NCBI GenBank assembly: GCA_000165345.1
Contig: CM000429.1
Coordinates: 672,001-736,000, forward strand
Direction: 5' to 3'
DNA length: 64,000 nucleotides
Each line of letters begins with the position of its first letter. The first letter of the stretch is position 1. A model generated the notes under the pieces. The model was not told the DNA's origin, ran no database searches, and saw only the letters and a program-made list of their open reading frames with translations. This document shows, piece after piece, positions 21,970 to 63,137 of the stretch. Position numbers and translations under genes: made by a program.

Positions 21970-22030
21970 TAATTAATTTTAATTGTTATTTTAACTATAA
22001 ATATAAATATAAATATTTCTAAGTTTCATA

Positions 22031-22130
22031 TTTTTTCTTTCTTTCTTTCCTTCCTTCCTTCCTTCTTTCTCTCTTCCCCACTCACTGACTCTTTCTTTCT
22101 TTGTTTTTTTTTCTCCCTATATTGCTATTT
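22031..22130. repeat. Polypyrimidine (CT-rich, (CTTT/CCTT)n) tract of about 100 bp in the convergent 3' intergenic region.
   Basis: ttttttctttctttctttccttccttccttccttctttctctcttcccc... lies between the stop of the + gene (21969) and the stop of the - gene (22172). Confidence 0.85.
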
Positions 22131-22171
22131 ATTCATAATCCCCTATTCATTAGTCCATGTTTATTACAAAT

Positions 22172-58909: not shown

Positions 58910-59313
58910 TTTATAATTTTTTTTTTTTTTAATAATTAATTCTTCTTTTTCTTCTAAATAATATTAATATTTAATATTAATATATAATCAAATTAATTGT
59001 AGAAATCTTTTGATTTTAAATAACTATAGTTTATTCAACTTTTAAATAATAATTCCATATATAAATACGCATGCGTGTAAATATGTATTTAAAAGTAATT
59101 AACTTAAATTTAGTGTATTTTTTCCCTTATTCCTTGTTCTTAAATAATTTTATAATTACCAAATTATATTTTGTAAGATAAAAAAAGAAGGAAAAAAGGA
59201 AGATTTTAAAAAAAAAAAAAAAGAAAAAGAAATCGATTATGTAATTTCTTCCAATCCAAATTATACAGTCAAATCTTCCTTTTTCTTTATTTTTATAATT
59301 TCTTTTTTTAAAT

Positions 59314-59351
<38 letters not shown>

Positions 59352-59420
59352 CTAAATTTTTTATCTCCTAAATTCGACTTCTTATTGTTAATTTTGACTA
59401 TTAATTAATATTCTCTACTG

Positions 59421-59480
59421 TTGGCGCCCAAACTCACATATTTTTCAATTATTAATTCCGGTACCTGTTTTGGCGCCAAC
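59421..59480. promoter_or_regulatory. Two E2F-like boxes, TTGGCGCCCAAA (59421-32) and TTTTGGCGCCAAC (59468-80), flanking CCGGTACC (59458-65). A palindrome ACGCATGCGT lies at 59067-76. All are in the divergent promoter between NOL10(-) and gene 59680(+).
   Basis: Read directly from the sequence. Confidence 0.55.
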
Positions 59481-59608
59481 TAGAAAATTAAAAAATGTCA
59501 AAAAAAAAAAATTTCCCACGTTATTTAATAATAATTAATATATAAATGAAGAATTTAAAATTGTGTGAATAAAAAATATGAAATATATAAAGCTATATTG
59601 ATATAAAA

Positions 59609-59627
59609 AGAGAAAGAGAGAGAGAGA
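59609..59627. repeat. (GA)n microsatellite.
   Basis: agagaaagagagagagagag lies about 55 bp upstream of the ATG at 59680. Confidence 0.8.
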
Positions 59628-59679
59628 AAAAAAAGTTATTGTTATCAATATAATAATTAATTAATATTTGTAATTAGAA

Positions 59680-60618
59680 ATGCTATATGTTATTGGTGAA
59701 TATAACAAACAAAAAAAATTTTTATCAAGTTTGATAAACCATTTACAAGGAAAATACGAAAATAAGGAAGAAACAACATTACCAGAAGAAGCAAAATTAC
59801 CAGAAAAAGTAAAAATTAATACCAAATATTATACAACAGAAATACAAGTCCAATTTTGGACCATAAATGAATATTTAGCTTTAGATTATAAAAACAAAAA
59901 TTTATATACTAAACATGAAATAATAACTCATACTCCTATTTTAATACCTAATCCAGAAGCTATTCTATTAATATTTTCTAAAATAGATTTGAACCAAAAT
60001 TATCATCTTTTATCATTACTGGATAAAAGATATCATCCATCAAATCATGAAATAACTAGAATTTGTTGTATAATATATAATAATTATGAAGAAATTATTA
60101 AAGAAAATGACAGCCTTAGAGAAAAAATGATTATTAATTGTAATCAGTTTAATTATGAATTTATCATATTAGTATTGGATACTAATGATATAATAAAACA
60201 AGATGACTTATTATTCTCCTTTATTGAAGGGACAAAAAGAGTCACCCAAGCATTATATTGTACACATTGGAAAAATATGTATAAACAACAAATAGCTGTT
60301 CCAAATCTTGAAAACAATAAACATCATGATATTTCACAATATCAAGAACAAGATCTTGATAATTATTTAGATAATTTTGAATTCTTGTTATCCATTATGA
60401 GAAAAATGACCTGCGATATTAAGCATTTGTCTGATCAAGAAAGAAGAGAAAGAGCCTCAAATCTTATTTGTGATTTAGCCAAATATCTAAATCTGGATGA
60501 TGAGGACGGCAATAATGATGACACCAATGACGATAACTCTAATAATGATAACTTCAATGATAATAACGCCAACTATGAATATGAATACAATGACTCTGAT
60601 CTTGTTAACAGCCAATAG
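59680..60618 (+). CDS. Hypothetical protein, 312 aa, with an acidic D/N-rich C-terminus.
   Basis: An uninterrupted ORF downstream of a promoter that carries two TTGGCGCC boxes. I recognise no domain. Confidence 0.45.
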   Translation: MLYVIGEYNKQKKFLSSLINHLQGKYENKEETTLPEEAKLPEKVKINTKYYTTEIQVQFWTINEYLALDYKNKNLYTKHEIITHTPILIPNPEAILLIFSKIDLNQNYHLLSLLDKRYHPSNHEITRICCIIYNNYEEIIKENDSLREKMIINCNQFNYEFIILVLDTNDIIKQDDLLFSFIEGTKRVTQALYCTHWKNMYKQQIAVPNLENNKHHDISQYQEQDLDNYLDNFEFLLSIMRKMTCDIKHLSDQERRERASNLICDLAKYLNLDDEDGNNDDTNDDNSNNDNFNDNNANYEYEYNDSDLVNSQ

Positions 60619-60672
60619 TATTGGTATACATTTAACTGGGTTGCCAGTAGTATATTCAGTCACAATAATAGC

Positions 60673-60945
60673 TTCTTTTCTTTCTCCTTAGTTTTCCTTT
60701 TATCCTTCTCCCTTCCTTCCTCCCTTCCTCTCTCCTTCTCCCTTCCTCTCTCCTTCTCCCTTCCTCTCTCCTTCTCCCTTCCTTCCTTCCTCCCTTCCTC
60801 TCTCCTTCTCCTTTCCTCCCTTCTTCTTTCCTCCCTCCTTTTTCATTTCCTCCTCCCTTCTCCCATCCTCTTCGCATTCTATACCTACAACTCCCCTCTA
60901 CTTTCCTCAATATTCACCTCCCACATTTCTTAATTCCCAACTTCT
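60673..60945. repeat. Nearly pure polypyrimidine (C/T) tract of about 240 bp. It has an internal ~18-nt periodic unit (cccttcctctctccttct, about 4 copies).
   Basis: Read directly from the sequence. It lies between the stop of the + gene (60618) and the 3' end of the - gene (stop 60930-60932), and overlaps the latter's stop region. Confidence 0.85.
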
Positions 60946-63137
60946 GATTCATATATATTTGATATAATTGTATTATTAGCATTTATACTATCTCTTGATT
61001 GATTATATAAAGAATCAATATATTTTCCAATATTAAAAATGCCATTTCCATTTTCCCCCATATTAGTATCTTCTCCTTCTTTACTATTGTCTTTATCTGA
61101 TACAATATAATGTTTTACTTTTAATGGAGTTTTACTATAATGACTTATCTTTGTAGAAAATATCTTATTTGAAGTATTCAATTCATCACTAATAATTTGA
61201 TCAACAGGTGATGCCAATGTTGATGTAATATTCATTTCTTGTTGCTCCTCTTCCTTACCACCTGCTCCTCGCTCTCCTTTCTCTTCTCCTTCTTCTCCTT
61301 CTTCTCCTTCTTGCTCTCCTTCTTCTCCCTTTCCCTCTTCCTTTCCCTCTTCCTTTCCCTTTCCCTTTCCCTCCTCCTCTTCCCTTCCCTTTCCCTCCTC
61401 CTCTCTTACATTCTTTTCTTGTTTCTGCTTCTTCTCTTCTTTTTGCTTATCTTCATTCTCATCCATATGTTTTACTTGATCCTCTTGATCTCGTTCTTGT
61501 TTATCCACATATTCATCATTATCATTTTCAATATCTTCACTGCCATTTCCTCTTAAAGAAATATATAATTTATCATGATAATCAACAATACTTGAAGAAT
61601 CTGATGAATTATCATTTTTTTCATTATTTATACTCATCAAATATCTTTGACTTATATTATTTAAACTTGTATTTCTTCTTCTTAATGAATTATGACTATT
61701 CTTTGATATTTGATCTTTTAAATCACTATTATCGTTATTATTACTATTATCATCATCATTATCATTATCATCATTCATTATTGCTTGATTTATATCATTT
61801 CCAGAAACAAAATTATCCTTAATACTTTCATTTCCATTTACATTAATATTCGATAATAAAGTTGAAACATTTTCATTATCTTTTTCATTTATTTTAATAT
61901 TTGTTAATTCAAAATCTTGACTTTCATCTTCTTTATTATTACTATTATTATTATTATTACGTTTCTTCTTATTATTCTCAGAAGGAATTGCTTGAATAAT
62001 TGCATATGGATATTTATTCTGACCAAAATCTCGATGATTTAAATTTTCAAAAAATTTGGATTTATCATAAAAATATAACATATCTGTACAATTACAATTA
62101 ATATTATTACATAAAAGTTTTCCTTGTTGATTTGGATTACAAGGCATAAATTTATAATATGTATAATTACAATCCATTGGATCAGTTACTTTTAATATCA
62201 TAGAATATGAACTATTTGATAAAGTACTAAGTTGAACAGCTGTTAATTCTTCATGTATATTTTCAGAATCAATCATTTTTGAAATTTCATACATTATATG
62301 TATTCCTTGCATTGCTGTAATTGTATGTCCAATATTATAATACATTCTTTGATTAATATTTTGTATTTCAAGTTCAGTACTCATAAATATTGAAGTTTGT
62401 AAAAATATATGAAATGGAATTAATTTATCTTTACTTCCATGAAATATATATACTCGAGTATTTTGTTTTTTTTCATCACTAACATTGAAATCAAAAATTT
62501 CATTATTTAAAGGAGAATCTTTTCCTAATGATAAATGACTAATCATTGGAATCCAACCAGATACTCCTATTACACCTCCTATTGTAATATCTCTCATAAT
62601 CATTGAAGTAATTAATGCCATAGCAGAACCTTGAGAAAAACCTATTAAAAATATTCTACTTTGATCAATTCCTAAATCAATTTCAGATTTAATAATATTA
62701 CGTATTCTTTTTACACTTTCTAAAATTCCATTAATATCTTCAATATTTTCTGTTGGTGAAAATGATGTAATATTAAACCATGCAGGACATTCATTTCCAT
62801 AGATAGCAGTGATTTTTCTATATTTAGAAGTTGGTATTATCCATTTTGTATTTGGTAAGAAATCTTTTTTATTAACAAGTATTAAAAATCTTTCCCATTC
62901 TACTGCTGAGCTACATAATCCATGTAACCATACAATAACATTTTGATAATTAGATGGAGTAAAATTTAATCCATAACCTCCATTAGTATCACCTTTTTTA
63001 AATTTTACTGTTTGATTTGCTTTTTTTAAAAGGCATTCAACATTAGAAAAAAAAATTATAAAAATGATAAAAATCACATATATTCTTGGGATTTTTCTTT
63101 GAATTTCTAAGCTTAACATATTTGAATTTTTTTCCAC
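60930..63137 (-). CDS. Alpha/beta hydrolase of the phospholipase/carboxylesterase family (acyl-protein thioesterase / lysophospholipase-like). It has an N-terminal signal/anchor and an E/G/K-rich C-terminal extension.
   Basis: Motifs VIVWLHGLCSS, a GxSxG nucleophile elbow GFSQGSAMAL, and a downstream IFHGSKDKLIP segment that fits the Abhydrolase_2 fold. The N-terminal hydrophobic segment is IYVIFIIFIIFFSNVECL. Confidence 0.7.
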   Translation of the reverse strand: MEKNSNMLSLEIQRKIPRIYVIFIIFIIFFSNVECLLKKANQTVKFKKGDTNGGYGLNFTPSNYQNVIVWLHGLCSSAVEWERFLILVNKKDFLPNTKWIIPTSKYRKITAIYGNECPAWFNITSFSPTENIEDINGILESVKRIRNIIKSEIDLGIDQSRIFLIGFSQGSAMALITSMIMRDITIGGVIGVSGWIPMISHLSLGKDSPLNNEIFDFNVSDEKKQNTRVYIFHGSKDKLIPFHIFLQTSIFMSTELEIQNINQRMYYNIGHTITAMQGIHIMYEISKMIDSENIHEELTAVQLSTLSNSSYSMILKVTDPMDCNYTYYKFMPCNPNQQGKLLCNNINCNCTDMLYFYDKSKFFENLNHRDFGQNKYPYAIIQAIPSENNKKKRNNNNNSNNKEDESQDFELTNIKINEKDNENVSTLLSNINVNGNESIKDNFVSGNDINQAIMNDDNDNDDDNSNNNDNSDLKDQISKNSHNSLRRRNTSLNNISQRYLMSINNEKNDNSSDSSSIVDYHDKLYISLRGNGSEDIENDNDEYVDKQERDQEDQVKHMDENEDKQKEEKKQKQEKNVREEEGKGREEEEGKGKGKEEGKEEGKGEEGEQEGEEGEEGEEKGERGAGGKEEEQQEMNITSTLASPVDQIISDELNTSNKIFSTKISHYSKTPLKVKHYIVSDKDNSKEGEDTNMGENGNGIFNIGKYIDSLYNQSRDSINANNTIISNIYESEVGN

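Follow-up and report, generated by a model that had tools for sequence, protein, structure and literature searches.

A young, length-variable polypyrimidine minisatellite between two convergent genes on chromosome 1 of Cryptosporidium parvum

What is a stretch of almost pure C and T doing between two converging genes of Cryptosporidium parvum, and is it kept there for a purpose? The stretch lies on chromosome 1, in a 64,000-nt piece of contig CM000429.1 that was analysed as a whole (hereafter the window), where cgd1_3280 on the plus strand and cgd1_3290 on the minus strand run towards each other and 311 bp separate their stop codons. A first reading of the letters of the window (hereafter the original prediction) had described about 240 bp of uninterrupted pyrimidines at this junction, with about four copies of an 18-mer, as a candidate for intramolecular triplex DNA (H-DNA) and a likely hotspot of copy-number variation. 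The tract is real, statistically extreme, young and clade-specific, and its length differs among isolates, although its length and purity had been overstated. It is probably a non-coding polypyrimidine/polypurine minisatellite, that is, a variable-number tandem repeat (VNTR), driven by slippage and evolving neutrally or nearly so.

The homopyrimidine tract is present where it had been placed, and its pure run is the longest run of purines or pyrimidines in the window (Table 1), but the uninterrupted length is 142 nt and not 240 bp. The runner-up, at 94 nt, lies inside coding sequence, and 100 first-order Markov simulations of the window gave longest runs that averaged 19 nt and never exceeded 27 nt. 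Exactly four exact copies of the 18-mer CCCTTCCTCTCTCCTTCT were counted, as had been estimated, at 60722, 60740, 60758 and 60792, and three of them are in tandem. This head-to-tail arrangement of an 18-nt unit falls within the range of unit lengths of minisatellites (about 10-100 bp). Tandem Repeats Finder (TRF) likewise reports a period of 18 nt, with 8.9 degenerate copies over 60714-60871 (78% match), together with a higher-order period of about 70 nt within the extended tract. The autocorrelation has its top peak at a lag of 18 (0.74) and smaller peaks at lags 26 and 52 (0.70). The position between convergent genes at 59680-60618(+) and 60930-63119/63137(-) was borne out, whereas the claimed overlap with the stop region of the hydrolase gene cgd1_3290 was not: the pure run stops 86 nt short of that stop codon (60930-60932), the last 56 nt before it are non-repetitive, and the interval 60673-60945 as a whole is 92% pyrimidine. 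Taken over its full length, the spacer is 85% pyrimidine and 45% G+C; other intergenic regions in the window are mostly about 20% G+C (range 17-32%, one 5-bp spacer left aside).

Table 1. Features at and around the cgd1_3280/cgd1_3290 junction (window coordinates)
Feature	Position	Strand	Description
cgd1_3280	59680..60618	+	upstream gene of the convergent pair; hypothetical protein, 312 aa
Left spacer	60619..60671	+	cgd1_3280 stop to tract; carries motif AGTCACAATAATAGCTTC, which runs into the tract start at 60675
Open reading frame (ORF) across the tract	60656..60910	-	84 aa (73 aa from first ATG); compositional artefact of the purine strand
Extended tract	60672..60873		202 nt with 4 purines (98% pyrimidine); degenerate 18-nt periodicity
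Tract core, uninterrupted C/T run	60703..60844		142 nt, 76 C + 66 T (54% C)
Perfect period-18 tandem array	60720..60783		64 nt, 3.56 copies of CCCTTCCTCTCTCCTTCT
Right spacer	60874..60929		56 nt, pyrimidine-rich, non-repetitive; tract to cgd1_3290 stop
cgd1_3290	60930..63119	-	putative carboxylesterase, 729 aa from ATG 63119; tract in 3' flank
Second C/T tract	61272..61407	- (coding)	41 + 94 nt; EEGKG low-complexity region of cgd1_3290

Tract length, whose comparison among isolates the original prediction had proposed, is variable and not invariant. Alleles were read from assemblies fetched at the same locus, not from amplicons. Across the tract, GCA_031892065 does not differ from the window at any base. 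The assembly of the HLJ chromosome is shorter by 18 nt, which is exactly one unit, a Logan contig of run ERR14760746 has lost exactly 54 nt, and the IOWA-ATCC assembly has gained 10 nt at about 60774. Copy number therefore differs among C. parvum isolates, as it does in a VNTR. The four C. parvum alleles are set apart by one indel apiece, all inside the 60720-60783 array, and by no substitutions. Over the surroundings, 3 single-nucleotide polymorphisms and 7 indel events separate the window from ATCC across about 14 kb, and the same numbers separate it from HLJ across 10.6 kb; the tract accounts for one of the seven indel events in either comparison, and most of the seven are in other simple repeats. 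In more than 20 samples, short-read contigs stop at 60740/60741, and a contig from the opposite side begins at 60782, because a 30-nt segment is repeated 70 nt apart. These breaks, the -18, -54 and +10 indels, pure runs of 97, 110 and 127 nt in C. hominis and an assembly gap in C. tyzzeri all agree with the proposed hotspot of copy-number variation.

Comparison with other species gives the tract an age. In C. hominis it occupies the same position, with pure runs of 127, 97 and 110 nt in three assemblies and length differences of 30 and 48 nt between them, and its repeat unit is TTTTCCTTTCCTCCC (15 nt), unlike that of C. parvum. Isolate CHM of C. hominis has yet another unit, TCCTCCTCCCTTCTCCCA, which is 18 nt long and includes an A. 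C. parvum and C. hominis have near-identical flanks and wholly different repeat units, as is typical of rapid turnover. In the assembly of C. tyzzeri, a run of N occupies exactly the tract position. More distant species, in which the syntenic junction was reached via the conserved neighbouring gene NOL10, have no tract at the orthologous cgd1_3280/cgd1_3290 junction. The spacer is 125 bp in C. meleagridis, with a longest pyrimidine run of 8 nt (two independent assemblies, identical), 154 bp in chipmunk genotype I (13 nt), 146 bp in C. ubiquitum (13 nt) and 261 bp in C. canis, where the longest run, of 16 nt, is a T-run and not a C/T tract; on reading the 524-bp spacer of C. ryanae, no tract was seen. 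In C. meleagridis the flanks join directly across the tract site (...GCTTCTTTTATCACCTCC...CTTCTTAATTCCCAAC), and chipmunk genotype I has just some 70 nt of CT-rich sequence, which include a segment (ACTCCCCTCT) shared with the right flank of C. parvum. As an intergenic element the tract is not conserved, being missing at the syntenic junction in these five other Cryptosporidium species, and because the more distant species examined lack it there, the long tract is restricted to the C. parvum / C. hominis / C. tyzzeri clade. A search for homologues of the carboxylesterase domain matched, within Cryptosporidium, a C. hominis fragment and C. ryanae; the ten other matches are carboxylesterases of bacteria, at about 30% identity.

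These observations are most simply accounted for by the birth and ongoing turnover of a repeat. The seed would have been a short CT-rich stretch in the region 3' of cgd1_3290. Once the C. parvum / C. hominis / C. tyzzeri lineage had parted from C. meleagridis, slippage during replication and/or unequal exchange would have lengthened it in units of 15-18 nt, and turnover would then have continued independently in each species and isolate. Neutral or near-neutral evolution is favoured because the indels are clean and of unit length, sister species have different units, the CHM unit contains an A, and relatives with the same gene pair lack the tract. The tract probably has no conserved function, judging from the species compared, and because five other Cryptosporidium species keep the gene pair without it, an essential or required role is argued against. 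It is probably transcribed within one or both 3' untranslated regions (UTRs) or termination zones, since most of the spacer between these convergent genes, itself very short, is taken up by it. H-DNA, or R-loops formed by the purine-rich cgd1_3290 transcript, would be likely side effects that add to instability and not selected functions; such structures could incidentally hinder polymerases.

Several points weigh against this account. The tract may have a lineage-specific function, for example as a terminator peculiar to this clade, as an element of the 3' UTR or as a hotspot of recombination. More than 95 nt of pure pyrimidine have been kept in both C. parvum and C. hominis despite full turnover of the unit, which could reflect selection for purity instead of recent expansion from pure seeds; strict selection of this kind is argued against because the C. 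hominis CHM allele amplifies an A-containing unit. A GA-rich coding expansion of cgd1_3290 in the same clade is a hint that GA/CT expansion may be favoured locally or throughout the lineage. Finally, some of the allele differences could be errors of short-read or nanopore-based assembly, especially the +10 of IOWA-ATCC, an assembly that we take to be nanopore-based; the short-read assemblies of C. hominis are also among the most exposed to such errors.

A functional alternative is that the clade has acquired a non-B DNA or R-loop element that serves as a terminator or insulator and pauses RNA polymerase II between the convergent genes in the 311-bp spacer. The purine-rich cgd1_3290 RNA would pair with the pyrimidine template in a stable R-loop, and/or H-DNA would arise by folding of the mirror-repeat duplex. 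Homopurine/homopyrimidine mirror repeats are the sequences of intramolecular triplexes at S1-hypersensitive sites of eukaryotic genomes, such tracts can adopt H-DNA under negative supercoiling, and purine-rich RNA on pyrimidine DNA makes unusually stable hybrids that favour R-loops. The tract resembles H-DNA-forming mirror repeats in having one strand of pyrimidines alone over 142 nt, well beyond the homopurine/homopyrimidine length of about 15-20 bp or more that goes with H-DNA, in its internal, though imperfect, mirror symmetry and in a G+C content of about 54%, which suits C+.G.C and T.A.T triads. It differs from an ideal mirror repeat in that its symmetry, though sufficient by the sequence criteria in common use, has flaws (perfect mirror repeats reach 15 nt at most; one of 33 nt has 1 mismatch and one of 51 nt has 2 mismatches). 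The H-DNA prediction stands on sequence criteria, the homopyrimidine run and the imperfect mirror repeats, and the tract is a candidate of that kind. A canonical G-quadruplex or i-motif (four runs of at least three G or C, loops of 1-7 nt) was not found in the tract, and one match appears when loops of up to 15 nt are allowed. A literature search found no link between Cryptosporidium and polypurine/polypyrimidine genomic tracts or non-B DNA, its polypurine matches concerning eIF4A and rocaglates. The placement of the tract exactly between two converging stop codons, the purity of the main run kept in C. parvum and C. hominis despite unit turnover, and a 49-nt C/T tract in the same orientation to the minus-strand gene at junction 21970-22171 would all suit a terminator. 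Against it, the same gene pair converges tract-free in C. meleagridis, where the spacer is just 125 bp long, and likewise in chipmunk genotype I, C. ubiquitum, C. canis and C. ryanae, six of the eight convergent junctions in the window have no such tract, and neither the length nor the unit sequence appears constrained. We regard this alternative as improbable.

Another function could be exerted at the RNA level, by a cis element of the 3' UTR (CU-rich in the cgd1_3280 mRNA or GA-rich in the cgd1_3290 mRNA) that is bound by RNA-binding proteins and tunes stability or translation, with repeat number modulating expression. The spacer is so short that the tract would almost certainly fall in at least one 3' UTR, a conserved motif lies directly 5' of it on the plus strand, and no AATAAA-like signal is visible on the minus strand from the cgd1_3290 stop to the tract. 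Such an element is nonetheless unlikely: the unit sequence differs between C. parvum and C. hominis, close relatives have no tract, and the C. parvum alleles differ by as much as 54 nt. A scan of 59000-62000 with Rfam found nothing that overlaps the tract; its sole match in that interval, SNORD31 at 61164-61196, is at chance level (E 0.73, 19 bits against a gathering score of 40). The motif AGTCACAATAATAGCTTC is at 60658-60675, about 40-55 nt past the cgd1_3280 stop and directly before the tract, and it can be made out in chipmunk genotype I and C. ubiquitum, whereas in C. meleagridis it is altered. The left spacer with this motif may be a 3'-end processing region or signal.

A more far-reaching variant holds that the tract, in expanding itself, became an R-loop/H-DNA transcription barrier in the C. 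parvum / C. hominis / C. tyzzeri clade, with repeat number tuning read-through, antisense transcription or local meiotic recombination. If this were true, the locus would be a lineage-specific terminator or recombination hotspot adjustable by copy number. To our knowledge, termination signals and recombination hotspots of this parasite are essentially unmapped. We consider the variant distinctly unlikely.

That the tract encodes protein, either as a small E/G/R/K-rich product of 73 or 67 aa or, by way of splicing, read-through or frameshifting, as additional C-terminal sequence of the carboxylesterase, is very unlikely. In GCA_031892065.1 and C. parvum HLJ the ORF that crosses the tract has been annotated as a gene, of 73 or 67 aa (gene calls on the purine strand at L001 10977-11198(-) and, for HLJ, at L015 7224-7427(-)), the periods of 18 and 15 nt and most of the indels (-18 and -54; 30 and 48 nt among C. 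hominis) are multiples of 3, cgd1_3290 itself contains a similar E/G/K-rich coding tract, and the carboxylesterase ORF of chipmunk genotype I extends further, into the CT-rich seed. Yet a strand of pure purine or pyrimidine cannot hold TAA, TAG or TGA, so that all six frames are open by construction in the pure run and the 84-aa ORF carries no information. It has no Pfam match, and its 73-aa product was not found in a collection of 15 billion proteins. No peptide or frame is conserved: the +10 ATCC allele shifts the frame, the counterpart in C. hominis is unrelated sequence, and there is none in C. meleagridis. The ORF also does not share the frame of cgd1_3290, and reading on in the gene's own frame meets a stop after 14 codons; the purine-rich minus strand offers neither a polypyrimidine tract nor AT-rich, intron-like sequence before a possible acceptor. 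Splicing from the 3' end of cgd1_3290 into the ORF was rejected as a candidate, no plausible AT-rich intron or acceptor context being found on reading the sequence. The tract thus shows no coding signal, the original dismissal of the ORF as an artefact holds, and the 73-aa and 67-aa gene annotations are most likely over-predictions. The 15- and 18-nt periods, as multiples of 3, are the sole hint of a coding past, and no weight can be placed on a sample of two. In chipmunk genotype I the carboxylesterase ORF (L019 4340-4354) runs 5 codons (QERKT) beyond the C. parvum stop, into the CT/GA-rich seed, and the position of the carboxylesterase stop is therefore not fixed across species.

It is extremely unlikely that the tract or its variation is an artefact of assembling low-complexity sequence, even with short-read contigs breaking at the array, a run of N at the tract in C. 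tyzzeri and a +10 insertion confined to the IOWA-ATCC assembly, since at least 8 independent assemblies from three species contain the tract with identical flanks, GCA_031892065 has the tract of the window to the letter, the -18 and -54 alleles have each lost whole units and show no other difference, and the -54 contig passes through unbroken, as expected if the repeat loop is truly missing in that sample. Separately, the 1.4-kb Logan contigs (L003-L010) and L023 were considered as evidence of transcript 3' ends in the tract and rejected. Their ends are breaks in the de Bruijn graph and not RNA ends, because the left ends of L003-L010 are in the (AT)n repeat at 59322-59337 and the right ends are at the edges of the repeated 30-nt segment.

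The VNTR discovery paper of Perez-Cordon et al. 2016 reportedly contains a longer list of candidate loci. Read as a slippage-driven minisatellite, the tract has its closest known relatives among the VNTR typing loci of Cryptosporidium, for example those of the seven-locus C. parvum scheme for multilocus VNTR analysis (MLVA; PMC9043402). Like them, it is a tandem repeat of C. parvum whose copy number varies by isolate and which has other alleles in C. hominis, and it is non-coding, as is the MLVA locus cgd8_4440_NC_506 (PMC9043402). Unlike them, it has an 18-nt unit of C and T alone and a short, imperfect array, with 3.6 perfect copies within about 9 degenerate ones. The junction is not among the seven validated MLVA loci (PMC9043402), the set compared here. 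The only chromosome 1 marker in the seven-locus scheme, cgd1_470_1429, has low discrimination, with a Hunter-Gaston discriminatory index (HGDI) of 0.17 (PMC9043402). The tract is thus an apparently undescribed polymorphic marker of chromosome 1 in both C. parvum and C. hominis, with a possible use in typing, and a spot at which short-read assemblies break and automatic annotation invents a small gene. It also offers a clean, dated case in which a homopyrimidine minisatellite arose de novo and then turned over quickly, C. meleagridis lacking it and C. parvum and C. hominis carrying divergent versions. A specialist would not be surprised by it, and no long-standing question depends on it.

The second C/T tract of the neighbourhood, in the coding region of cgd1_3290, has a parallel history. 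It is expanded and length-polymorphic in C. parvum, C. hominis and C. tyzzeri, always in steps that are multiples of 3, with a short seed, GKGKGEEEEERGAG, in C. meleagridis and no counterpart in chipmunk genotype I and C. ubiquitum. Its HLJ allele is longer by 9 nt, and isolate CHM of C. hominis has 14 aa fewer than the other C. hominis assemblies. This E/G/K repeat resembles the intergenic tract in being C/T on the plus strand, in its G+C content of about 53%, its neighbourhood, its expansion in the same clade and its length polymorphism, and differs from it in being in frame and translated, with indels in multiples of 3 and another unit. This sister expansion suggests a bias toward GA/CT expansion, either local or shared across the lineage. 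Derivation of the intergenic tract as a copy of the coding tract was set aside as unsupported, the local alignment score being 100 against 92 +/- 10 for composition-matched random sequence. Two of the eight convergent junctions in the window have a C/T tract, and a general link of such tracts with convergent junctions is unsupported. The other one, at 21970-22171 (202 bp, 74% pyrimidine), contains a 49-nt TTTC/TTCC tract at 22031-22079, with the same orientation relative to the minus-strand gene as the main tract.

The two genes were named via the locus tags CPHLJ_1g3280 and CHM_1g3280, together with a paper that names cgd1_3290 "carboxylesterase, putative"; the locus is at about 738 kb in assembly CP029780.1. 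The ORF 60930-63119(-) is identical to EAZ51357.1 ("carboxylesterase") and has an Abhydrolase_2 domain (E 3.6e-31, Pfam). The open frame spans to 63137 on the upstream side and the annotated start is the ATG at 63119; across the tract, the sense strand of this gene is purine-rich. The 312-aa ORF 59680-60618(+) is identical to EAK88322.1, a hypothetical protein of C. parvum Iowa II, with a weak match to the alpha/gamma-adaptin-binding protein p34. In a literature search, cgd1_3290 was found solely in an expression table, its neighbour cgd1_3300 turned up in another paper, and cgd1_3280 was not found.

The cgd1_3280 gene and its promoter contain further repeats. Its C-terminus has an N/D-rich coding repeat of period 15 (60510-60572), and the length of the protein in entries from C. 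parvum, C. hominis and C. tyzzeri varies between 306 and 328 aa. Part of this range is probably due to a second VNTR about 100 bp from the tract. In the 306-aa HLJ protein the difference is confined to the N-terminus, by way of a 351-bp gap: the HLJ chromosome assembly is without about 351 bp (window 59349-59699; L015 about 6260), between a T-run and an A-rich stretch. The missing sequence includes the cgd1_3280 ATG, and the HLJ annotation has a different N-terminus with an intron; the gap is either a true deletion or an assembly collapse. The divergent promoter region between cgd1_3280 and NOL10 carries an (AT)n repeat and a T15 run at 59312-59351 and a 31-nt GA-rich purine tract at 59605-59635, which ends 45 nt upstream of the ATG. 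IOWA-ATCC differs from the window by indels of 1-4 nt at 59207, 59337, 59499 and 59615, two of them within these promoter repeats.

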